A stretch of 14,585 bases of DNA from a virus, in the UHGV virus genome UHGV-0166592; one strand, given 5' to 3'. This document shows, piece after piece, positions 50 through 10,839 of this stretch. A model generated the notes under the pieces. The model saw only the letters and a list, made by a program, of their open reading frames with translations, made no database searches and was not told where the DNA came from. How positions within the stretch are numbered: the first letter of the stretch is position 1; the number at the start of each line of letters is the position of its first letter. The position numbers and the translations under genes were made by a program.

Positions 50-916
50 TTACTCACCCTGTGGATCATGATATTCAACGCACGCCTGTAGCGTGTTTTC
101 AATCAGCGTGGCAACCGTCATCGGGCCAACGCCGCCCGGAACAGGCGTAATGTATGAGGCGCGTTTAGCCGCGTCTTCAAACACGACGTCGCCCACAACT
201 TTGCCATTTTCCAGACGGTTGATGCCGACATCAATCACAATTGCGCCTTCTTTGATCCAGTCACCAGGAATAAAGCCCGGCTTGCCGACGGCAACGATCA
301 GTAGATCGGCATTTTCTACGTGGTGACGCAGATTTTTAGTGAAACGGTGGGTCACGGTAGTGGTGCAACCTGCCAGCAGCAGTTCCATGCTCATTGGGCG
401 ACCGACGATATTCGATGCGCCAATCACCACGGCGTTAAGGCCAAAGGTATCAATGTTGTAACGCTCAAGCAGCGTGACGATACCGCGCGGGGTGCAGGGA
501 CGCAGACGTGGCGCGCGCTGGCACAGGCGACCGACGTTGTAAGGATGGAAACCGTCCACGTCTTTGTCCGGATGAATACGTTCCAGCACTTTGACGTTAT
601 CAATACCCGCCGGTAACGGCAGTTGAACCAGAATGCCATCAATGGTGTTGTCGGCATTCAGCGCATCGATAAGCTCCAGCAGCTCCGCTTCGCTGGTGGT
701 TTCCGGGAGGTCATAAGAGCGGGAGACGAACCCGACTTCTTCACAAGCCTTGCGTTTGCTTGCGACATAAATTTGCGATGCAGGGTTGCTACCCACCAGC
801 ACAACGGCCAGTCCTGGCGCCCGCAGTCCGGCTGCAATACGCGCCTGAACTTTTTGAGCAACTTCAGAGCGCACCTGCTGCGCAATCGTTTTACCGTCAA
901 TAATCTTTGCTGCCAT
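50..916 (-). CDS. folD: Bifunctional 5,10-methylene-tetrahydrofolate dehydrogenase / 5,10-methenyl-tetrahydrofolate cyclohydrolase FolD
   Basis: 288-aa ORF, ATG at 916..914, TAA at 52..50. The translation ([19 protein letters not shown] ... [16 protein letters not shown]) matches my recollection of E. coli FolD almost residue for residue. Confidence 0.95.
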
Positions 917-1278: not shown

Positions 1279-2442
1279 TTACGCCTTCTTTATATCCTCC
1301 ATAATTCCAGAGTGGGACATATTTGGGACATTATCACCAAAAATGTCGTCTATTTTCCTCGCATGCTCTGTCAAATGATTAGGCGCAAGGTGAGCATACC
1401 TACGAACCATTTCTATGGACTCCCATCCGCCCATTTCCTGAAGCACTGATAATGGGACGCCTGACTGAATCAGCCAGCTTGCCCAGGTGTGTCTGAGGTC
1501 ATGGAAACGGAAATCTTCAATTCCTGCACGACGACAAGCTGATAGCCATGATGTCTTGCTGTCGATGCGCATCTTCCTGACCGCAGGCGTTGATGTTCCA
1601 TCTGCTCGCTTAGCCGCCTTGGTATGTACAAACACCCATTTGTGATGCTTGCCTATTTGATCACGCAACACTTTACAGGCGGTATCGTTCAGCGCCACAC
1701 CAATGGCGCGGTTTGATTTGCTCTCTTCTGGATTCACCCAGGCAACTCGTCGCTGCATGTCGATTTGTTGCCATTCCAGATTTATGATGTTCGACTTTCT
1801 CAGACCAGTTGCCAGCGCAAACTTGACGACAGATTTCAGTGGTTCGGGGCACTCATCAATAAGGCGTTTTGCTTCCTCCTTTTCCAGCCATCTGACTCGC
1901 TTGTTTCTGACCGCTGGTATCTTGATGACAGGCGCTTTTTCCAGCCACTTCCAGTCGCGTTCTGCAGCACGGAGAATGGCCTTTATCATGGCAAGATGCT
2001 TTGCCTTTGTCTGAGTTGATACTGGCTTTGGTTCATAAACAGGCGGTTCTTTACCTTTCCTGATGGCGGCCCGAACTTTCTGTTTCCATATTTCTTTCGT
2101 CTTTCTGTTATGCATTCTGCTTACAGCAGAGTAAATCTTTGCCTCCGAGATATCTTTAAGCCTTATACCCTCAAAATGTTCAAGCCAGAACTCAATCCGG
2201 CTTTTATCTGAATCGAGAGATTTTTTATCAGCCTTTTCCTCAAGCCATCTTAGGCAGGCCTCTTCAAAAGTGACATCAGGTAAATCCCCTAGCTTTTCTA
2301 CTCGCCAGAGTTCTGCTTTTCGCTTGTCGTGCAACTCCTGAGCTTGCCGCTTGTCCTTTGTGCCAAGAGATTCCTTAATTCGTTTCCCGCCCGGGAGCGA
2401 ATACGAGGCATACCATATTTCATTTCTGCGGAAGAGTGACAT
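1279..2442 (-). CDS. int: Tyrosine-type site-specific integrase (lambdoid, IntD-like)
   Basis: 387-aa ORF with the C-terminal catalytic region [39 protein letters not shown] (R..H..R..Y signature of tyrosine recombinases). The N-terminus [31 protein letters not shown] matches my recollection of DLP12 IntD. RBS GAGGAAAG precedes the ATG at 2442. Confidence 0.95.
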
Positions 2443-2669
2443 TTTCTTTCCTCTGTTATGCCATCACCCGCGCTCACCTGGACAGTATGCAGCGGAGACT
2501 GAAGAGCCGCAATGCAGGCTTGTCGTGTTGTGAGGTAAGGAGATTTATTCTTAGTGGGATCTTTACGTGTTGCCTGAAGACGCCCTGTGCGTATCCAGTT
2601 AATGGCAGTCGGTCTGGATATCTTGAGAAAATGACAGGCCTCATCGAGTGTGAGGCTGTATGGCTCCAT
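2298..2669 (-). CDS. xis: Excisionase-family DNA-binding protein (Xis/AlpA-like HTH)
   Basis: Start chosen at the internal ATG 2669..2667 ([37 protein letters not shown]...), preceded by GAGGTG and overlapping the upstream stop as TAATG. The reading frame has no stop until 2298, so it runs 145 bp into int in another frame; the true C-terminus is uncertain. Confidence 0.55.
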
Positions 2670-2974
2670 TATTTCACCTCTTGTTGTGACATTGTTGAAA
2701 AATGGATACCAGCTCGTTGCTGCCAGACGATCCAACCGAGAGTCATATCCCATGCCATGTATTCGTTATCGCCGTTTTTTGCTCTCCGACGATCTACTAA
2801 GTCACCGAAACGCTTTTCCATGAATAATTCATAAGCTTCGCGTTCATCTGGTTCTACTTCCAGAGATAGGAGTGCGATTTCATAAGCACGGCGCTCAATA
2901 TCGTCTCGCACGTCAAGGCTGCTGATACGCTCTTTAATTTCTTTAATCAGTTCTTTGTCGGTAAAAGTGGTCAT
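2669..2974 (-). CDS. YfdT-like prophage protein, function unknown
   Basis: 101-aa ORF, translationally coupled at both ends (TAATG overlaps). The length and position match my recollection of the CPS-53 yfdP-yfdT block (YfdT is 101 aa). Confidence 0.65.
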   Translation of the reverse strand: MTTFTDKELIKEIKERISSLDVRDDIERRAYEIALLSLEVEPDEREAYELFMEKRFGDLVDRRRAKNGDNEYMAWDMTLGWIVWQQRAGIHFSTMSQQEVK

Positions 2975-3336
2975 TATGCTCCAGCCTCCGGTGCTTTTGG
3001 CATTACTGCCCAGTGAGTGATATTGACGTTTTCAAGGTCCCCGACCTGAAATGTCCACTGCCATTCTCCGGTTTCTTTTTGTCCCCAGGTGTACCAGAGA
3101 GAACGCCAGCCAATCAGCCAGCCTTCTCCATTAGCATCAAATAACAGAACACTTTCATTTGCTGGCGGCAGTTCAGCTGACACTGGTATTACTTTGTTTT
3201 CCAGTGCTGTACATTTAGCTTCAAGCGCATCGAATTTACGTACCAGGTATTCAGCATCTGTTTCATTCACTTTCAGATCTCGCGGTACACATCTCCCACG
3301 AAGAAACCCTTCCATTTCGAAAACATTCATGCGCAT
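2974..3336 (-). CDS. YfdS-like protein (DUF551-like C-terminus)
   Basis: 120-aa ORF. The C-terminal ...NITHWAVMPKAPEA resembles the W-x-P-x-P end I associate with DUF551 phage proteins. Its start overlaps the stop of the upstream HD-domain gene. Confidence 0.65.
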   Translation of the reverse strand: MRMNVFEMEGFLRGRCVPRDLKVNETDAEYLVRKFDALEAKCTALENKVIPVSAELPPANESVLLFDANGEGWLIGWRSLWYTWGQKETGEWQWTFQVGDLENVNITHWAVMPKAPEAGA

Positions 3337-3863
3337 TTGCGTAACTCCGATAAATCGTTAAAACGTTCCATAAACATCCCGTAGGCATGACCCGGTGCCA
3401 GTGGAATCACGTTGAACATCTCTGTTGCCGGGATGCCTTCCAGTACAGGCCAGAAAGAGCCATCATCAAGCCCGAGATCGCGGCGTTCGGTTGCCAGCAT
3501 AATGAGATCGGCATATTTCACTGGCGTGCTCATAACAGGAGGTAACCCGTATTTCTCACGGATTACGGCGTCTATTTTTTCTTCCATACGTTTATAGTCA
3601 GGAAGAAGTCGTTTCAGTGGTGCGGGGATGTCCTGGCAATATGCTTCTGTTGCATCATGCATTAAAGCTTCAAAAGCAAATTCCTGCGGCACCAGCTGGC
3701 TGCAAAGAACCGCATGTTGGGCGACGCTGTAGAAGTGCGAAAGATGACCGGCAAAGCGACAGATATTTGAAAGGGAAACCGCGATATCGTTAATAACGAT
3801 GTCGTCTTTATTTATCCTGTCATAATAAAAATGCTTCCCGGAAAAAGTTTTAATAAATGACAT
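3327..3863 (-). CDS. yfdR: HD-domain phosphohydrolase, YfdR-like (5'-nucleotidase family)
   Basis: Start placed at ATG 3863..3861 (MSFIKTFSGKHFYYD...), which has RBS GGAGAA 5 nt upstream and gives 178 aa. The ORF-track start at 3890 is a GTG. Carries an HD-type metal-binding region (NICRFAGHLSHFYSVAQHAVL ... LMHDATEAY). Confidence 0.8.
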   Translation of the reverse strand: MSFIKTFSGKHFYYDRINKDDIVINDIAVSLSNICRFAGHLSHFYSVAQHAVLCSQLVPQEFAFEALMHDATEAYCQDIPAPLKRLLPDYKRMEEKIDAVIREKYGLPPVMSTPVKYADLIMLATERRDLGLDDGSFWPVLEGIPATEMFNVIPLAPGHAYGMFMERFNDLSELRKCA

Positions 3864-3956
3864 TTTGTTCTCCACGTATATGCACTGCACCGCGCTGAAT
3901 TCTGGTAAAAGGAAGCCCTAACCATCCGGTGATTATTGAGTTAATTACGTTTCCAT

Positions 3957-3978
3957 AAATGCCCCCGCAGGGGCATTT
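3957..3978. repeat. Perfect 9-bp inverted repeat AAATGCCCC-CGCA-GGGGCATTT between the yfdQ-like and yfdR-like genes
   Basis: Arms 3957..3965 and 3970..3978 are exact reverse complements. No U-run follows on either strand, so it is not a classic intrinsic terminator. Confidence 0.6.
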
Positions 3979-3990
3979 GCAGTAATGAAA

Positions 3991-4815
3991 TCAGGCGGTG
4001 AAAGTACCAATAAAGGTTTCTACTTTGCTGTCTTTGAATTTCTCAACAAGCAGATCACGAAATTCGTTAGCCATTTCTTCCTGCACCGCTTCCAGCTGAA
4101 TAATGCGCAGAACCAGTACAGGACGATCGCCAGTGATAATGCTGAGGCGTAATTTAAACGGACGTTCTTTCAGACCTTCAAACGGAACGCATTTAAATTC
4201 AAATGCCACTGGCATAATGTCTTTGGTCTTCGCTTCGACAGACTCCATCAGGGAGCGTTTGCCGCTGAAGTCATTATCTTCAAAATCAGCGGTCTGGTTT
4301 GCTTCAATCGTGATTTTACGGACTGCCGCAGCCGCTTTTGTTGCTTGAATGGCGTCACCATTAGCATCAAAGCCCACAAGGTAGTCGGCCCAGTCTTCGA
4401 TCCATTCTGCCAGTGACTTCTGGGAGTTACGCTCGCCGTTAACAGACAACAGAGCAGAGAACGGTGCTGTCTTTTTCAGTTTGAGAGTGGCAGTGTTATC
4501 TGCGTGACCTGGTTCATCAATAGTACCCAGGTTAAGCACACTGACGGCTCGCATATTATCGGCATCGATAAAGCAGCGGGTGCCTTCATCTGCAAGATCT
4601 TTAGAATAACGGGTAAAGTCATCGATGCTGGCAGTGGAAAGCGCACCACGGAAACGGAAGCGATTTAAATTAAATTTTTCCAGATCATGAATGCGGAAAT
4701 TCTCAGGCAATGCCACAGCATCGGCACCAATCTTACTGATAATTTCATTAACACCCTGAGCAGAAATAAGGGCATGGATTTGATTAATTGCGGTTGCGTC
4801 TAAGTTCTGAGACAT
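3991..4815 (-). CDS. yfdQ: YfdQ-like protein (DUF2303-type), function unknown
   Basis: 274-aa ORF with RBS GAGGA 7 nt upstream of ATG 4815; the length and translation fit my recollection of CPS-53 YfdQ. Confidence 0.75.
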
Positions 4816-4880
4816 AATAAGTCCTCACTATATAAAGATATTCAGTGATGAGATAAATAATCAGTTTATTAAGAACGATA

Positions 4881-5243
4881 TTAATGACCTGCTGCGCGTA
4901 GTTTTCCGTCAGGTTCACCGGCAAGAGTCAGTAATTGTCCCTGGTCTTCCTGCAGAATAGTCAGGCGACCACCGCGATTGACATACATCGGCGTTTCGGT
5001 GGTGTCTTCTTCGGAAATTTTCCCGCGGTTAGTTGGGCGAACATATGAGAGTTTGTGTTTGATTTTCACACGGTTCTCATCAAACGGTTCGATTTCCAGA
5101 TTGAGTGAGACCTTCCCTTTGGTTTTCGTGTTCATCACACCGGAAGCGACCTCACTGAGAACTGCGCCGATTTTGGTTTCAAATACGCCGCCGTCCAGCT
5201 CCCCGATAAATGCCTGCACATCAGTACTGCGTTCGCTAGCCAT
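4881..5243 (-). CDS. YfdP-like protein, function unknown
   Basis: Start placed at ATG 5243..5241 (MASERSTDVQAFIGELDGG...), which has a strong RBS GAGGAG 6 nt upstream and gives 120 aa. The upstream extension of the ORF track to 5408 lacks an RBS. Confidence 0.65.
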   Translation of the reverse strand: MASERSTDVQAFIGELDGGVFETKIGAVLSEVASGVMNTKTKGKVSLNLEIEPFDENRVKIKHKLSYVRPTNRGKISEEDTTETPMYVNRGGRLTILQEDQGQLLTLAGEPDGKLRAAGH

Positions 5244-5292
5244 TTTGCTGCTCCTCATCATATCGACCCTGCAAGGTCGGTTGGTTTCTCCA

Positions 5293-5379
5293 CAAAACAG
5301 AGAAGAACACCTGCGGTGGCAGCCGCCCGGATGGATTGGGTTATGAGCCCGTCGTCCGGTGATGCTCTTCTCTGTTTTG
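5293..5379. repeat. Long inverted repeat: 14-bp arms CAAAACAGAGAAGA / TCTTCTCTGTTTTG separated by 59 nt
   Basis: Arms 5293..5306 and 5366..5379 are exact reverse complements. It lies in the 5' leader of the yfdP-like gene on the minus strand. Confidence 0.75.
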
Positions 5380-5380
5380 C

Positions 5381-5432
5381 AAAAAAGGACGGTACCAGCC
5401 GGAAGCAAGGGTACAAACTGGTACCGCCAGGA
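5381..5432 (-). terminator. Candidate intrinsic terminator in the left-operon leader
   Basis: On the minus-strand RNA a 9-bp stem (CGGUACCAG / CUGGUACCG, arms 5418..5426 and 5390..5398, extendable to 11 bp with one G-U pair) is followed by UCC and then UUUUUU (complement of 5381..5386). The 19-nt loop is larger than typical. Confidence 0.4.
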
Positions 5433-5645
5433 CTACACACAGCATAAAGTTGTGGTGCCGGGTGCCTCCCGGTGCCTGGCGAAGGTTGCACACCAGGCGG
5501 GTGGGTATCCACAGAAGGTCGACTGTCAGCCTCAACCTTAACCCGCGTGCGCTGAGCCGCATTCACCACAACGCTAAGGATTCTCTCTGGTTGAAAATAC
5601 TTAGCTGTTATGTGCCTGCTTTTAGCCACATCAGGCGAGGTGGAC

Positions 5646-5697
5646 CTGGTTATTCCCCAACAACAAGGATTCGGTTAATCTGGTTATCCCCAACAAC
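5646..5697 (+). repeat. Two direct repeats CTGGTTAT(T)CCCCAACAAC upstream of the 144-aa gene
   Basis: Copies at 5646..5664 and 5680..5697 are identical except for one extra T and are 34 bp apart. They end 16 nt before the ATG at 5713 and are a candidate regulator-binding site. Confidence 0.6.
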
Positions 5698-5712
5698 GCA
5701 AAAGGAAAAGAA

Positions 5713-6147
5713 ATGTCCGGTAATATCTACACGCTGTACAAATCCCACTGTGAAAATGTTGGAAAGTATCGGGGCATTGAAATCAGTGGGGTAGTGTCAT
5801 CAGTCGAAATAAGCAAAGTGGAATCAAGGGCAACATTACTTACTCTTCTGGACCTTGTCTTACATGAGCACCGGAAGAAATTCGGTACTCCCTATAATCA
5901 GTTGAATGGGAAAAAGGCTCTGGTTCACCTTATTCTGATGAAGCATCACTGGATGCCAAAACAGATTAATGAGATGAAATTTGATGAACTTCTTCTTTCA
6001 ATTCAGGATGAACTCACACTTGATAAAATAAGCGTAACCGCCCAGAAATTTTTAGATTATCGAGACTGGAGATCACAAATTCATCACTTTGATGATTTTG
6101 ACGAAAATGAATGGGATCCTAATTTGTCTGCACAATATCTAAAGTAA
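5713..6147 (+). CDS. Hypothetical 144-aa protein; AT-rich cargo gene in reverse orientation
   Basis: 435-nt ORF in an AT-rich segment, with RBS AAAGGAAAAG before ATG 5713. A 144-codon ORF in AT-rich DNA is unlikely by chance. I recognise no family. Confidence 0.6.
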   Translation: MSGNIYTLYKSHCENVGKYRGIEISGVVSSVEISKVESRATLLTLLDLVLHEHRKKFGTPYNQLNGKKALVHLILMKHHWMPKQINEMKFDELLLSIQDELTLDKISVTAQKFLDYRDWRSQIHHFDDFDENEWDPNLSAQYLK

Positions 6148-6325
6148 CATCCTGTGATAAAACCGTGATTTCCTGATCCAGTTTTTTTAAGGAGTCTATT
6201 GTTTCCTGTCGATAAGACAGCACTTCACGAAGCTGGTTTATAGCTGCCAGCTTCTTTGTCATCCGCTCATAAATTTCCTCATCTGTGTAGCCAGGCGCGA
6301 CGATTTTGGGTTCTGTTTTGTGCAT
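6119..6325 (-). CDS. Hypothetical 68-aa protein; candidate first gene of the leftward early operon
   Basis: ATG 6325..6323 with RBS GAGGAG 7 nt upstream; codon usage looks E. coli-like. Its 3' end overlaps the 144-aa gene convergently by 29 nt. No arginine-rich motif, so it is not an obvious N homologue. Confidence 0.4.
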   Translation of the reverse strand: MHKTEPKIVAPGYTDEEIYERMTKKLAAINQLREVLSYRQETIDSLKKLDQEITVLSQDVTLDIVQTN

Positions 6326-6370
6326 TTCACATCTCCTCAAGTTATCAGTTACTTGTTGATGGGGACCAGA

Positions 6371-6383
6371 TTGTTAAAGAGCT
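6371..6383 (-). promoter_or_regulatory. boxA-like antitermination element (minus-strand RNA AGCUCUUUAACAA)
   Basis: The 12-mer GCTCTTTAACAA on the minus strand is identical to the rrn/consensus boxA core as I recall it (TGCTCTTTAACAA). It lies directly 3' of a hairpin and 45 nt upstream of the RBS of the 68-aa ORF. Confidence 0.45.
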
Positions 6384-6410
6384 AAGCGTCCTGTAGGGCG
6401 CTTTTTTGTT
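6384..6410 (+). terminator. Intrinsic terminator on the plus strand, downstream of the 144-aa gene
   Basis: Stem GCGTCC / GGGCGC (6386..6391 and 6396..6401, one G-U pair), loop TGTA, then TTTTTTGTT (6402..6410). The same hairpin on the minus-strand RNA sits immediately 5' of the boxA-like element. Confidence 0.6.
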
Positions 6411-6490
6411 GCTAACGAATCACCCTAGACTTTATATGCCCCAGGCGGCTACTTCGTGGGCGTCCTGCCTGTTCGTTATCTTTGATATAA

Positions 6491-6519
6491 AATCTAACTT
6501 AACTTAGTTATTATGGCAA
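6491..6519 (-). promoter_or_regulatory. Candidate pL-like promoter with overlapping operator-like palindrome
   Basis: On the minus strand: -35 TTGCCA (6519..6514), 17-nt spacer, -10 TAGATT (6496..6491). The near-palindrome CTAACTTAACTTAG (6494..6507) overlaps the spacer and -10 and resembles the OR palindrome at 7222..7235. Further CTTAG copies lie at 6539, 6552 and 6572. Confidence 0.35.
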
Positions 6520-6572
6520 GAGAAAACACCAAACTTTTCTTAGTTCGGTGCCTTAGTTAGAGAAGAGAGGTC

Positions 6573-7199
6573 TTAGAGTTCGTATTGAACTCCTTTGACT
6601 ACACCAATGATAAGGCAATTACCATTGATAGGGATGTTGGGATACCGAGGATTTAATGGCACTAAAAACTTTTGAGGGCCATCGATGACTAATTTTTTTA
6701 CTGTAGCTTCGTTTGTTCCATCAAGTCGAGCGATGACTATTTTTCCATGACGAGGTTCTGCATCTGGATCTACAATCACTGTTGCGCCTTCTGGTATTGT
6801 TGGGAGGCCATTAGGGTTAGTCATGGAGTCACCTTTAACCTCTAATGCAAATGAGTTATCACCAATCTTTAATGATGTATCTACCCACTTGTCCACTTCA
6901 CTAAACACTTCTGCTGCCCTGCACTCAGTAAACTGCCCAGCCTGAACCCACGATATTACAGGAACTCTGCGCATGTTTGTGACGAGTTTGCCTTCAAACT
7001 CAGCACCATAAAGAATGTAATCTATTGACGTATTGAAGAACTTCGCTAATTTCGAAAGTGCCTCCCCACCAGGGGTATTGATGTCTTTCTCCCAGTACCC
7101 CACAGCAACGTCGCTTACTCCACAAAATTTACCCAATTCTTTCTGGGACGTTCCGGTAACTCTTCTCAGAGCTTTTATACGCTGACCAACCGTTTCCAT
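6573..7199 (-). CDS. cI: CI-type prophage repressor (N-terminal XRE-family HTH, C-terminal S24 LexA-like peptidase)
   Basis: 208-aa ORF. The N-terminus (QRIKALRRVTGTSQKELGKFCGVSDVAVGYWE) is an HTH; the C-terminus has the S24 Ser/Lys dyad context (GDSMTNP ... TVKKLVIDG). It is divergent from the cro-like gene. Confidence 0.9.
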   Translation of the reverse strand: METVGQRIKALRRVTGTSQKELGKFCGVSDVAVGYWEKDINTPGGEALSKLAKFFNTSIDYILYGAEFEGKLVTNMRRVPVISWVQAGQFTECRAAEVFSEVDKWVDTSLKIGDNSFALEVKGDSMTNPNGLPTIPEGATVIVDPDAEPRHGKIVIARLDGTNEATVKKLVIDGPQKFLVPLNPRYPNIPINGNCLIIGVVKGVQYEL

Positions 7200-7296
7200 A
7201 GGAGCACCATTTCTTGAATTGCTAAGTAATCTTAGTTTTTATTGACCAAAGATAGATTTGTAATTAGCATCTAATAAAACTTAGTTTGGAGGGCGT
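7200..7296. promoter_or_regulatory. Divergent cI/cro control region (OR-like) with operator palindromes
   Basis: 97-bp AT-rich interval between the divergent cI and cro starts. It contains the inverted repeat CTAAG-TAAT-CTTAG (7222..7235), the palindrome AAACT-T-AGTTT (7277..7287) and a candidate -35 TTGACC (7242..7247). Exact pR/pRM positions are not resolved. Confidence 0.6.
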
Positions 7297-7497
7297 ATGA
7301 CAACTGACGATATCGAAAGCTACTTCGGCAGTATTGAGAAAGTTGCTGCTTTTTTCGGCATAACAACTGAAGCCGTTTATCAGTGGCGAAACCGTCCGGG
7401 CCAGTTAATTCCAAAAGGACGTGCAGCAGAAGCTGCATATAGAACTTGCGGACGGTTGCCATTTAAACCTGAGCTTTATGAAAAATCTAATGGATAA
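7297..7497 (+). CDS. cro: Cro-like small HTH regulator (YdaS-type)
   Basis: 66-aa ORF divergent from cI, with RBS GGAGGG before ATG 7297. HTH-like segment GSIEKVAAFFGITTEAVYQWRNR. Confidence 0.8.
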   Translation: MTTDDIESYFGSIEKVAAFFGITTEAVYQWRNRPGQLIPKGRAAEAAYRTCGRLPFKPELYEKSNG

Positions 7498-8086
7498 ATC
7501 GATTAACAGAAACCACAGAACGATGAGGCTAACCGTGGGTAAGCATCACTGGAAAGTAGAAAAACAGCCTGAGTGGTACGTGAAAGCTGTCAGAAAAACT
7601 ATCGCAGCGTTGCCGGGTGGTTACGCTGAAGCAGCTGACTGGCTGGATGTAACAGAAAACGCATTATTTAACCGCCTTCGTGCCGATGGCGATCAGATTT
7701 TCCCGCTGGGATGGGCAATGATTTTGCAACGTGCTGGTGGAACTCACTTCATTGCTGACGCTGTGGCGCAGTCTGCAAATGGCGTCTTTGTGTCTCTTCC
7801 TGACGTCGAGGATGTGGACAACGCCGATATTAACCAGCGCCTGCTGGAAGTCATTGAACAGATTGGCAGTTATTCCAGACAGATTCGTTCGGCAATCGAA
7901 GACGGTGTGGTGGAACCGCATGAGAAGACAGCAATTAACGACGAGCTGTATCTCTCAATTTCGAAGCTGCAGGAGCATGCAGCACTGGTCTACAAAATCT
8001 TTTGCGTTTCAGAAAGTAGTGACGCCCGCGAGTGTGCAGCTCCGGGCGCCGTGGCGTGTCGTGACTGTGGAGAAACTAACGCATGA
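7478..8086 (+). CDS. CII-like / YdaT-family early regulator (start uncertain)
   Basis: The ORF immediately follows and overlaps cro. Possible starts are 7421, 7478 and 7490; none has a strong RBS. Its position after cro and its size fit the phage CII/YdaT-type regulators as I recall them. Confidence 0.5.
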
Positions 8087-8421
8087 ACAGTTTAACAACA
8101 CACTACCGTCGCTCGCAACTGATTGCGCTTCCTGTACCGGGTGGAAAAGCGAAGGTGGAGTATTGCTATGCAGTTAATGTACCAGGTGACAGGGAAATTG
8201 TAACCCACAGCTTTGCTGAGTGGGCTGTGGGTGATTTCAACCGGCAGAAGGAGACAGTCCTTTGCGACAAGTTAACCGCTGGTTCAAAGATCACTACGGA
8301 GTGCCCGTCAGAGTCATTCGTTGGGAGCCGGAAACACAACGAGTTATCTACCTCCGCGAAGGCTATGAGCATGAGTGCTTCAGCCCGCTCGAACAGTTTC
8401 GTCGTAAATTCAGGGAAATAG
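8083..8421 (+). CDS. Hypothetical protein, frame 1 (overlaps a better-looking alternative frame in its 3' half)
   Basis: ATG 8083 overlaps the upstream stop (ATGA), with GGAG 10 nt upstream. The C-terminal third translates to low-complexity S/A-rich sequence, suggesting that part is not the genuine frame. Confidence 0.3.
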
Positions 8422-8441
8422 AGGTCGGTCATGAGCACTAA
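8262..8441 (+). CDS. Candidate small protein, DUF4222-like, non-ATG (TTG) start
   Basis: The frame-3 translation [58 protein letters not shown] looks protein-like. There is no in-frame ATG; TTG 8262 lies 8 nt after a strong RBS AAGGAGA (8248..8254). It ends TAA 8439..8441, overlapping the replication gene start. Confidence 0.3.
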
Positions 8442-9372
8442 ATTAACCGGCTATGTATGGGATGGTTGCGCTGCATCAGGCATGAAATTATCCAGCGTGG
8501 CAATTATGGCCCGCCTGGCTGATTTCAGTAATGACGAAGGTGTGTGCTGGCCATCAATTGAAACCATTGCCCGCCAGATTGGCGCGGGGATGAGTACCGT
8601 CAGAACGGCTATCGCACGGCTGGAAGCAGAAGGCTGGTTAACGCGTAAGGCGCGTCGCCAGGGTAACCGCAATGCGTCGAATGTTTATCAGCTTAACGTT
8701 GCGAAGCTTCAGGCAGCGGCATTTTCTCAACTGTCAGATTCTGACCCGTCAAAATCTGACGCATCAAAATCTGACCCGTCAAAATTTGATGCGTCGAAAT
8801 CTGGCAAAAAAGCGGGTTTTCACCCGTCAGAATCTGGTGGGGATCCGTCAGTAAAATCAAAACATGATCCGTCAGATAAAAAAACTTCTCGTCCGGACGC
8901 TTCGCAACCGGACACGCAGACGGCTGAACAGGATTTTTTAACTCGCCATCCTGATGCGGTTGTATTCAGCCCTAAAAAGCGCCAGTGGGGGACGCAGGAT
9001 GATTTGACCTGCGCACAGTGGCTCTGGAAAAAAATCATCGCCCTGTACGAGCATGCCGCCGAATGTGACGGCGAGGTGGTTCGTCCCAAAGAACCGAACT
9101 GGACAGCCTGGGCAAACGAAATTCGCCTGATGTGTGTGCAGGATGGTCGTACTCATAAACAAATCTGCGAGATGTACAGCCGCGTCAGTCGCGATCCGTT
9201 CTGGTGCCGTAACGTGCTCAGCCCGTCGAAGCTGCGGGAAAAATGGGATGAGCTTTCCCTGCGCTTATCGCCGTCCATCAGCACATACACAGAAAAACGC
9301 GAAGACCCGTATTTCAAATCCAGTTACGACAACGTGGACTACAGCCAGATCCCGGCAGGATTCAGGGGGTGA
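8431..9372 (+). CDS. Replication initiation protein (N-terminal winged HTH, C-terminal DnaT-like domain)
   Basis: 313-aa ORF with RBS GAGG 6 nt before ATG 8431. The N-terminus (VAIMARLADFSNDEGVCWPSIETIARQIGAGMSTVRTAIARLEAEGWL) is the wHTH of phage initiators; the C-terminus (TCAQWLWKKIIALYEHAAE...) resembles DnaT-type domains. The central linker is encoded by iteron-like repeats. Confidence 0.8.
   Translation: MSTKLTGYVWDGCAASGMKLSSVAIMARLADFSNDEGVCWPSIETIARQIGAGMSTVRTAIARLEAEGWLTRKARRQGNRNASNVYQLNVAKLQAAAFSQLSDSDPSKSDASKSDPSKFDASKSGKKAGFHPSESGGDPSVKSKHDPSDKKTSRPDASQPDTQTAEQDFLTRHPDAVVFSPKKRQWGTQDDLTCAQWLWKKIIALYEHAAECDGEVVRPKEPNWTAWANEIRLMCVQDGRTHKQICEMYSRVSRDPFWCRNVLSPSKLREKWDELSLRLSPSISTYTEKREDPYFKSSYDNVDYSQIPAGFRG
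8731..8885 (+). repeat. Iteron-like 15-bp repeats inside the replication gene; candidate origin
   Basis: Five tandem 15-bp units at 8731..8805 (e.g. CCGTCAAAATCTGAC, GCATCAAAATCTGAC, CCGTCAAAATTTGAT), then three spaced copies at 8824, 8845 and 8869, followed by an A-rich tract. Confidence 0.6.
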
Positions 9373-9374
9373 GC

Positions 9375-9863
9375 ATGAGTCTTTTGAATGAAGTTCAGAA
9401 ATTCATTGAAGCCCATCCGGGGTGTACTTCCGGAGACATTGCGGATGCTTTTGCAGGTTACTCACGACAGCGCGTTCTGCAGTCAGCAAGCAAGTTACGT
9501 CAGAGTGGGCGTGTGGCTCACCGTTGTGAAGGGGATACACGCAGACATTTCCCGCGCCTGACTGAGAGAGCGCAGGAGCCGGAACCACAACCAGTTCGTG
9601 AAACCAGACCTGTGCGCAATTTCTATGTCGGCACTAACGATCCACGGGTGATTTTGTGCCTGACCCGCCAGGCTGAAGAACTGGAGTCCAGGGGCCTATA
9701 CCGTCGTGCTGCAACGGTGTGGATGGCGGCATTCCGTGAAAGCCACTCCCAGCCAGAACGAAACAATTTTCTGGCGCGTCGTGAGCAGTGCTTACAGAAA
9801 AGCAGCAAGCGCGCTGCATCGGGTGAAGAGTGGTATCTGTCAGGGAATTACGTGGGGGCTTAA
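9375..9863 (+). CDS. PerC-like transcriptional regulator
   Basis: Start placed at ATG 9375 (GTG 9369 is possible). The segment AEELESRGLYRRAATVWMAAFRESHSQPERNNFLARREQCL resembles the PerC/Pch motif as I recall it. Its stop overlaps the next start as TAATG. Confidence 0.5.
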   Translation: MSLLNEVQKFIEAHPGCTSGDIADAFAGYSRQRVLQSASKLRQSGRVAHRCEGDTRRHFPRLTERAQEPEPQPVRETRPVRNFYVGTNDPRVILCLTRQAEELESRGLYRRAATVWMAAFRESHSQPERNNFLARREQCLQKSSKRAASGEEWYLSGNYVGA

Positions 9864-10516
9864 TGAGTAATAAATATTGCCAGGCGCTGGTGGAACTGCG
9901 GAACAAACCAGCCCATGAACTGAAGGAAGTGGGCGATCAGTGGCGCACGCCGGACAACATTTTCTGGGGAATTAACACCCTGTTTGGCCCGTTTGTTCTG
10001 GATCTGTTCACTGACGGTGATAACGCCAAATGTGCTGCGTATTACACGGCGGAAGACAACGCGCTGGCGCATGACTGGTCAGAACGTCTTGCGGAGCTAA
10101 AAGGTGCTGCCTTTGGTAATCCCCCATACAGCCGCGCCAGTCAGCATGAGGGGCAATACATCACCGGCATGCGTTACATCATGAAACATGCCAGTGCCAT
10201 GCGTGATAAGGGCGGGCGCTATGTTTTCCTGATCAAAGCTGCCACCAGCGAAGTGTGGTGGCCGGAAGATGCAGATCATATTGCTTTTATTCGCGGGCGT
10301 ATTGGTTTTGAACTGCCTGCCTGGTTTATCCCGAAGGATGAGAAGCAGGTGCCGACAGGCGCTTTCTTCGCTGGTGCTATTGCTGTTTTCGACAAGACCT
10401 GGAAGGGACCGGCAATCAGCTACATCGGGCGCGATGAACTTGAGGCATGTGGTGAGGCGTTTCTGGAGCAGGTTCGTCAGCAGGCGGAAAAACTGGTCAG
10501 GGAGATGGCGGCATGA
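9863..10516 (+). CDS. Phage Dam-type DNA N6-adenine methyltransferase
   Basis: Start at ATG 9863 (MSNKYCQALVELRNK...). Contains the catalytic NPPY motif (AFGNPPYSR) and an upstream WRTPD segment typical of phage Dam-family enzymes. Confidence 0.85.
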   Translation: MSNKYCQALVELRNKPAHELKEVGDQWRTPDNIFWGINTLFGPFVLDLFTDGDNAKCAAYYTAEDNALAHDWSERLAELKGAAFGNPPYSRASQHEGQYITGMRYIMKHASAMRDKGGRYVFLIKAATSEVWWPEDADHIAFIRGRIGFELPAWFIPKDEKQVPTGAFFAGAIAVFDKTWKGPAISYIGRDELEACGEAFLEQVRQQAEKLVREMAA

Positions 10517-10839
10517 CGACGTTAACTCAATGCCAGCAGCAGGTGCTGGATATGCTGATTTCTTATCAGAAAGAACGTGGTTTCCCGCCAACCAATCAGG
10601 AGGTGGCAACCATGCTGGGATACCGTTCGGTGAATGCAGCGGTGGAGCATCTTCGTGCGCTGGAGAAAAAAGGCGTCATCACGATAAAGCGTGGCGTGGC
10701 CCGGGGGATAACGCTTCATACCGCGGTGAAGGACGACGACAGCGAGGCGGTCGGGATTATCCGCTCACTGCTTGCCGGTGAGGAAAACGCCAGGCTGCGT
10801 GCAGCCCACTGGTTACATGAGAGGGGCCTGAAAGTATGA
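10513..10839 (+). CDS. LexA N-terminal-like winged-helix DNA-binding protein
   Basis: 108-aa ORF; QQQVLDMLISYQKERGFPPTNQEVATMLGYRSVNAAVEHLRALEKKGVI resembles the LexA DNA-binding domain, with no peptidase domain. ATGA overlap with the Dam stop. Confidence 0.6.
   Translation: MTTLTQCQQQVLDMLISYQKERGFPPTNQEVATMLGYRSVNAAVEHLRALEKKGVITIKRGVARGITLHTAVKDDDSEAVGIIRSLLAGEENARLRAAHWLHERGLKV

Follow-up and report, generated by a model that had tools for sequence, protein, structure and literature searches.

The stretch analysed here (14,585 nucleotides of the UHGV virus genome UHGV-0166592, hereafter the window) is occupied from its integrase gene onwards by a lambdoid, SfII/SfIV-like prophage, whose replication initiator gene carries in its middle an array of short palindromic repeats. 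We propose that this array quite probably supplies the iterons of a lambda-type (theta) replication origin that the prophage carries inside its own initiator gene, a reading drawn from comparative sequence analysis. The design is the classical origin-inside-initiator-gene layout in a new version, and the principle itself is not new. An earlier note on this DNA had suggested a likely iteron origin within the initiator gene, in the manner of ori-lambda and gene O. The signs of selection at the DNA level, the palindromes, the co-inheritance of the array with the N-terminal domain (N-domain), and the homology of the C-terminal domain with that of lambda O, all described below, argue in favor of this suggestion. 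The elements of the gene are the following, with positions in the window and amino acids (aa) of the initiator.

8431-9372, plus strand: initiator gene, 313 aa, SfIV gp41 type, of lambda-O-like architecture (open reading frame [ORF] list, translation)
8431-8727, plus strand: winged helix-turn-helix DNA-binding N-domain, aa 1-99 (Pfam HTH_36, E 4e-11 at aa 23-70)
8728-8985, plus strand: predicted disordered inter-domain linker, about aa 100-185, hosting all the DNA elements (AF2 pLDDT <50 at residues 103-184)
8733-8805, no strand: tandem array of five 15-bp head-to-tail iterons (Tandem Repeats Finder, repeat search)
start 8733: core 1, GTCAGATTCTGAC
start 8748: core 2, GTCAAAATCTGAC
start 8763: core 3, ATCAAAATCTGAC
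start 8778: core 4, GTCAAAATTTGAT
start 8793: core 5, degenerate, GTCGAAATCTGGC
8806-8820, no strand: A6-N5-T4 palindrome AAAAAAGCGGGTTTT, between the array and the distal iteron
8826-8838: core 6, GTCAGAATCTGGT, the distal full iteron and best conserved copy of the family
8842: GATC box 1, GATCCGTCAGTAAAA, with an iteron left half-site
8856-8868: degenerate iteron-like copy, ATCAAAACATGAT
8866: GATC box 2, GATCCGTCAGATAAAAAAA, with an iteron left half-site
8878-8884: A7 run, end of the GATC-box element 8842-8884
8986-9270, plus strand: helical C-terminal domain, homologue of the lambda O C-terminal domain (tblastn, BLASTP, AF2 helices)
9343-9369, plus strand: terminal motif SQIPAGFRG, aa 305-313 (BLASTP, 8 of 9 residues identical to the DnaT end SQIPPGFRG)

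The initiator gene shares 98.6% nucleotide identity with gp41 of Shigella phage SfIV and is 98-99% identical to genes annotated as replication protein O or primosomal protein in SfIV, SfII, and many Escherichia coli phages, and the initiator was assigned to phrog_391, "replication initiation O-like" (E 5.6e-135). The AF2 model shows an N-domain of helices and a beta-wing (pLDDT 70-90) and, beyond the linker, a helical C-terminal domain (residues 189-280) followed by a disordered tail. The best Foldseek matches of the N-domain were dimeric winged helix-turn-helix proteins of MarR/ArsR type, and a single-sequence search of the initiator against solved structures returned MarR-type matches to the N-domain only. 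Among homologues, the linker varies in length and in peptide sequence. The six full copies of the repeat (8733-8838) fall in aa 101-136. The placement of the array in the linker-coding middle of the gene, after the winged helix-turn-helix domain, as the earlier note had it, is thus borne out by the HTH_36 match at aa 23-70 and the predicted disorder of the linker; translation of the array gave the low-complexity peptide that had been announced, SDSDPSKSDASKSDPSKFDASKSG.

Tandem Repeats Finder delineated 8740-8803 with a period of 15 (4.3 copies, 81% matches) and with a period of 30 (88% matches, score 100), and the repeat search found six in-register copies at spacings of 15, 15, 15, 15, and 33 bp. 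The ideal 13-bp palindromic core of each 15-bp unit is GTCAGA-N-TCTGAC; the actual cores are imperfect palindromes, with 4 to 6 of the 6 pairs complementary (4 in the copies at 8763 and 8826). A search for the core allowing up to 3 mismatches placed 9 of the 13 matches in the window (two strands, 6 positions) within the 106 bp from 8733 to 8838, for 5.1 expected over the whole 14.6 kb. Five tandem copies followed by three spaced ones and an A-rich tract had been described previously: the tandem five and the tract stand, but two of the three spaced copies are incomplete, the full one being at 8826, and the tract is merely 7-10 bp long, in a region that is no minimum of duplex stability. As a single strand, 8725-8890 folds strongly because of its tandem palindromes (minimum free energy -25.6 kcal/mol, z = -4.19, with 0 of 200 shuffles as good), which may become relevant once the region is unwound. 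No known RNA family was found in the array region.

The A6-N5-T4 palindrome, which could possibly bend the DNA, has A4-N5-T4 counterparts at the equivalent place in several relatives. In a terminator scan, the stretch 8806-8826 that contains it, AAAAAAGCGGGTTTTCACCCG, reads as a minus-strand hairpin resembling a terminator. Further on, the GATC-box/A7 element (8842-8884) is a candidate opening or loading zone. Its two GATC sites (8842-8845 and 8866-8869) lie 24 bp apart, and two GATC sites occur in 65 of 82 related loci; over the whole window, GATC is not enriched (54 observed versus 57 expected). A phage Dam gene (9830-10516) lies just downstream of the initiator gene and is also found in many relatives (L002, L003, L004, and others), not in SfIV. 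The conserved GATC pair together with the Dam gene hints at a control of the origin by methylation.

The relatives used for comparison comprised annotated phages, contigs with diverged homologues, and one genome per species (80 loci). An additional scan of IMG/VR yielded only loci with an identical N-domain and informs on the stability of the copy number, not on diversity. Across 87 distinct loci from many Enterobacterales, the core CA[AG]A-N-T[CT]TG occurred 363 times in the 250-nucleotide linker window (16.7/kb) against 5 times in these genes outside it (0.08/kb), an enrichment of about 200-fold with a modal spacing of 15 bp, and serine was encoded by TCA or TCT in 85% of cases in the linker versus 32% elsewhere in the same genes. 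Codon conservation over 82 distinct loci points in the same direction. In the N-domain, third positions scored 0.50-0.58 compared with 0.83-0.91 at positions 1 and 2, whereas third positions reached 0.88 in the distal iteron and GATC box 1 (versus 0.91 and 0.95 at positions 1 and 2) and 0.75 in GATC box 2; nearly all bases of the CCAGAATCTGG of the distal iteron are at least 90% conserved, wobble positions included. Moreover, the linker peptide is specific to each group of relatives (SKSDP, PSNID/PSTVD, SESEP, RSxSE, RPETE) and the DNA palindrome persists throughout, its half-sites changing symmetrically from one specificity group to another (GTCAGA/TCTGAC, TTCAGA/TCTGAA, TCCAGA/TCTGGA, GTCAA/TTGAC). 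An iteron copy even lies out of frame in phiP27, Stx2 KH16-043, and locus L166, where it codes for LQNL and not for SESE, so that it is the DNA motif that is kept and not the peptide. Such out-of-frame copies stand at gene positions 452 in L005, 467 in L006, and 449 in L166 and code for TLQNL or TRQNL. Altogether, the core enrichment, the wobble conservation, the changes of peptide, and the out-of-frame copies exclude a purely peptide-level explanation. These comparisons argue that selection acts on the DNA of the array, as expected for the initiator-binding iterons of a lambda-type origin, and the coding constraint would be weak in the predicted disordered linker where the array sits.

The array is furthermore linked to the N-domain. 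An HTH_36 N-domain precedes the array and the GATC boxes in every relative examined, whichever type of C-terminal domain comes next, and at least four such types have been swapped (lambda-O-like, Pfam Phg_2220_C, phiP27 type, and Proteus/Providencia type), with the recombination joint directly after the GATC/A-tract block. By analogy, module swapping at this joint would match the behavior of lambdoid origin-specificity modules. In 7 of 7 loci, a recognition helix STVI (not STVR) and a wing GQR (not GNR) go with the outer flanks T..A instead of G..C; this covariation of the Arg-to-Ile change in the recognition helix and the Asn-to-Gln change in the wing with the outer base pair is suggestive and, like the co-inheritance, lends indirect support to a binding of the iterons by the N-domain. 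The likeness of the N-domain to dimeric MarR/ArsR winged-helix proteins also fits palindromic sites.

We propose a model of initiation in which the initiator would be produced from the rightward early transcript (cro, the CII-like gene, a small ORF, and the initiator gene), and dimers of its winged-helix N-domain would bind the GTCAGA-N-TCTGAC cores, five of which abut at the 15-bp period, with the sixth 33 bp beyond the fifth. A 15-bp period corresponds to ~1.4 helical turns and would place neighboring dimers on nearly opposite faces of the DNA, and hence a compact wrapped nucleoprotein complex could form, comparable to the lambda O-some. The duplex would then be strained or opened in the conserved GATC-box/A-tract segment (8842-8884). 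Subsequently, the lambda-O-like C-terminal domain and the DnaT-like terminal motif would bring in the host DnaB-DnaC directly, as the phage is without a P-type loader or helicase. SfIV, a viable phage with this module and without an annotated helicase or loader, supports this reading.

Several observations nevertheless weigh against an origin at this place. No AT-rich unwinding element of the lambda kind (~40 bp) was found beside the array, where there is only the A7 run, and the 40-bp nearest-neighbor duplex-stability ranks around the array are unremarkable (1806 to 9728 of 14545). No DnaA box lies within ~650 bp of the array, the nearest DnaA-box-like site (1 mismatch) being at 8066-8074. 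Each palindrome has two 6-bp half-sites whose centers are only 7 bp apart, a tighter spacing than in typical winged-helix dimer sites; the stoichiometry is therefore uncertain. The comparative loci are related prophages and their counts are not phylogenetically independent, although the effect sizes are very large. Near-identical initiators (P0015, P0019, P0031, P0064, and P0070 in alignment A1) lack most or all of the tandem copies but retain the distal one together with the GATC boxes; these relatives may be defective prophages, or the distal element may be the sufficient or essential core. Finally, the searchable literature holds no experimental work on this initiator family and no description of its origin, and the term "initiator-solo" did not occur in the literature searched. 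Phage replication modules were reportedly classified by Weigel and Seitz (2006, FEMS Microbiol Rev), possibly with initiator-only lambdoid modules among them. The SfIV genome paper named orf41-45 a replication module, without further analysis, and none of the Eru1-3 replication types of Stx phages equals this module in a study where iterons are not discussed (PMC8044961).

Among the alternatives to an origin, the repeats could be initiator-binding control sites, serving autoregulation, a transcriptional roadblock, copy control or handcuffing, or the exclusion of related phages, with opening of the duplex elsewhere. Plasmid iterons serve both initiation and control, which counts for this possibility, as do the missing AT-rich unwinding element beside the array and the presence of AT-rich regions elsewhere in the window, e.g., 6475-6514 and 7227-7266. 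The latter, however, are repressor/cro intergenic and promoter areas, the homologous position in lambda is the origin, and the GATC-box/A-tract block moves with the array through the swaps of C-terminal domain, as expected of a self-contained origin. A role limited to control thus appears unlikely to us.

It is very improbable that a protein other than the initiator binds the palindromes, or that they act as single-strand hairpins, e.g., as a PriA-type primosome assembly site used together with the DnaT-like tail. The DnaT-like end of the initiator, the nearby genes for other DNA-binding proteins (CII-like, PerC-like, and LexA DNA-binding domain), and the folding of 8725-8890 (z = -4.19, 0 of 200 shuffles as good) would be consistent with it; but any run of tandem palindromes is bound to fold in this way, the array is inherited with the initiator N-domain and not with the neighbor genes, which vary between loci, and the iteron flanks covary with the recognition helix. 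Last, that the repeats would be a mere by-product, without DNA function, of a low-complexity pentapeptide linker (SKSDx)n changing by slippage is scarcely credible: the peptide encoded by the array is indeed repetitive and belongs to a linker predicted to be disordered, and close relatives have 0 to 8 pentapeptides, but conservation at wobble positions equals that at positions 1 and 2, the serine codons are fixed as TCA/TCT, the palindrome stays and its half-sites change symmetrically while the group peptides change, copies exist out of frame, and the best-conserved copy is the isolated, non-tandem sixth.

Under the proposal of an intragenic origin, the C-terminal part of the initiator would be the recruiting part. 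Residues of about 131-277 aligned by tblastn with the O genes of lambda, 933W, and 434 (35.6% identity, E 1e-18), pairwise BLASTP of the initiator against lambda O gave an E value of 3e-26, and the lambda-O-like C-terminal domain is carried by 2645 representative proteins; a profile of this domain had no match in the PDB. The C-terminus had previously been described as a DnaT-like domain, a description that does not hold, as the globular part is lambda-O-like and the match is confined to the last ~9 residues. Compared with DnaT (reference sequence from MG1655), hhalign gave a probability of 80% with the tails and of 0.08% without them. A DnaT-like globular domain was thus rejected: the initiator has no match to the Pfam DnaT family (PF17948, which as a control does match DnaT itself), BLASTP aligns the tail alone, and Foldseek fold matches of the initiator were winged-helix only, with no DnaT.

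The tail itself is well conserved. The last 30 aa of the family member P0136 match DnaT (18 of 30 identical, E 7e-8), the DnaT tail ...SEPDxxIPxGFRG is invariant among DnaT orthologues, and P308, G310, F311, and R312 are invariant in the alignment A1 of full-length lambda-O-like initiators. Two phage C-terminal domains unrelated to each other, the lambda-O-like one and Phg_2220_C, carry such a tail, hence three unrelated globular domains if that of DnaT is counted, which supports a mimicry of the tail. As the earlier note had stated, no loader gene follows the initiator gene, and the search that it had called for in the rest of the prophage gave the same answer: neither the window nor the complete SfIV genome has a helicase or loader gene, the genes after the initiator being PerC-like, Dam, LexA DNA-binding domain, and RusA. 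Seed and Walker-A screens of the relatives agree with the absence of a partner P gene downstream. Of the 53 sampled loci with the GFR tail, a single one is followed by a DnaC-like gene, and lambda-P-like or DnaB-like genes were seen in none of them; in the abundant E. coli P0109 type, the tail is likewise paired with a DnaC-like gene. All the loci with other tails (11 of 11) have a loader or helicase gene, and neither gene accompanies a third type of tail, WKE...AA (23 loci, two variant forms included). This recurrent tail, ...W(K/Q)(E/Q)xxQRxxGxxAA, is present in L004, L106, L112, L129, L131, L147, L152-L161, L170, and L171, and only in loci without a nearby loader or helicase gene.

We tentatively suggest that the initiator could mimic the tail of DnaT, the motif IPxGFRG acting as a handle that binds DnaC or DnaB-DnaC and thereby recruits the host helicase; on present sequence comparisons, we hold this to be possible rather than probable. 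The mechanism by which DnaT recruits DnaB-DnaC is stated as unknown (PMC13377028, PMC4132743), and the sole role assigned to DnaT residues beyond 153 is cooperative binding of single-stranded DNA (PMC4132743, PMC13377028). The match to the DnaT tail, which in the sampled loci goes with loader-free or DnaC-type modules, is the more valuable lead of this study, a phage protein that borrows the tail alone pointing to a candidate interaction motif. If tail mimicry is true, these abundant prophage initiators would reveal the element, long sought, that DnaT uses to pass DnaB-DnaC on to the preprimosome, and a loader-free class of lambdoid origin would be defined.

The wider context of the initiator gene in the window is that of a lambdoid prophage, with the following genes upstream of it.

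50-916, minus strand: folD (host gene)
1187-1263: tRNA-Arg(tct) gene
1279-2442, minus strand: integrase gene, left end of the prophage
6573-7199, minus strand: S24/HTH repressor gene
7297-7497: cro
7421-8086: CII-like gene
8083-8421: small ORF

The integrase gene lies beside tRNA-Arg(tct) and folD, and the prophage is therefore probably inserted at the tRNA-Arg(tct) gene. Early-left genes come after the integrase. The plus strand has a group of four DnaA-box-like 9-mers (1 mismatch) within about 400 bp (5286-5692), among them a direct repeat GGTTAT(T/C)CCCCAACAAC at ~5648 and ~5682, just upstream of the ORF 5713-6147 (phrog_5286, function not known); this cluster may have a regulatory role and does not look like an obvious origin. 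Downstream of the initiator gene, the order is a PerC-like ORF, Dam, a protein with a LexA DNA-binding domain only, RusA, KilA-N, DUF968/HNH, and the Q antiterminator. The first of these ORFs (9369-9863) overlaps the stop codon of the initiator gene (ATGA) and is present after it in many, not all, relatives; its C-terminal 60 aa are PerC/ANR-like and its N-terminal 100 aa are uncharacterized (phrog_23071). The ORF 10513-10839 encodes 108 aa, with the LexA DNA-binding domain alone (Pfam E 2.9e-19) and without an S24 peptidase domain, and is a homologue of SfIV gp43; its product could interfere with LexA or mimic it.

In prophages of E. coli, Shigella, Salmonella, Klebsiella, and relatives, this replication module is one of the most frequent, a single cluster at 90% identity gathering 5414 sequences, and it is present in the serotype-converting Shigella phages SfII and SfIV. 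A defined origin would give a handle for studies of prophage induction and replication, an account of replicon specificity and incompatibility among these prophages, and a minimal one-gene replicon for vectors.

The closest known counterpart of the proposed origin is ori-lambda. The O-type genes of phi80, 82, P22, and 933W also contain origins. As in gene O, dyad-symmetric iterons occupy the mid-gene segment that codes for the linker, with a DNA-binding domain on its N-terminal side and a recruitment domain on its C-terminal side, and the annotated ori-lambda iterons sit in the equivalent linker; the C-terminal domains are truly homologous (E 3e-26), and the gene occupies the same place of the early-right operon, after cro and CII-like genes. 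Unlike lambda O, which matches PF04492 (Phage_rep_O), the initiator has an HTH_36 N-domain and no PF04492 match, and lambda O ends in ...NTDWIYGVDL where the prophage initiator ends like DnaT. Whereas lambda has four 18-bp iterons with a period of 20-24 bp, a 40-bp AT-rich region, and a P gene, the prophage has neither of the last two, and its array comprises six full sites plus half-sites, in abutting 15-bp units with 13-bp palindromes.

The prophage module also resembles the iteron plasmids (pSC101 RepA, R6K pi, RK2 TrfA, and P1 RepA), which combine a winged-helix initiator with tandem iterons and use the host DnaB-DnaC without a loader of their own. Plasmid iterons, however, are 17-22 bp long and lie outside the rep gene with DnaA boxes and an AT-rich region, while those of the prophage are 15 bp long and intragenic, with neither nearby. 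With E. coli DnaT, the initiator shares a near-identical end (SQIPAGFRG versus SQIPPGFRG over the final 9 residues), and the globular parts are dissimilar. DnaT is thought to recruit DnaB-DnaC (PMC13377028, PMC4132743), but it is brought to forks by PriA/PriB and not through sequence-specific duplex binding. Finally, the initiators of phiP27 and Stx2 KH16-043 have an HTH_36 N-domain 44-61% identical to that of the prophage and the same type of 15-bp iteron array in the linker, but their C-terminal domain and tail are of another kind, and DnaC-like and DnaB-like genes come next.

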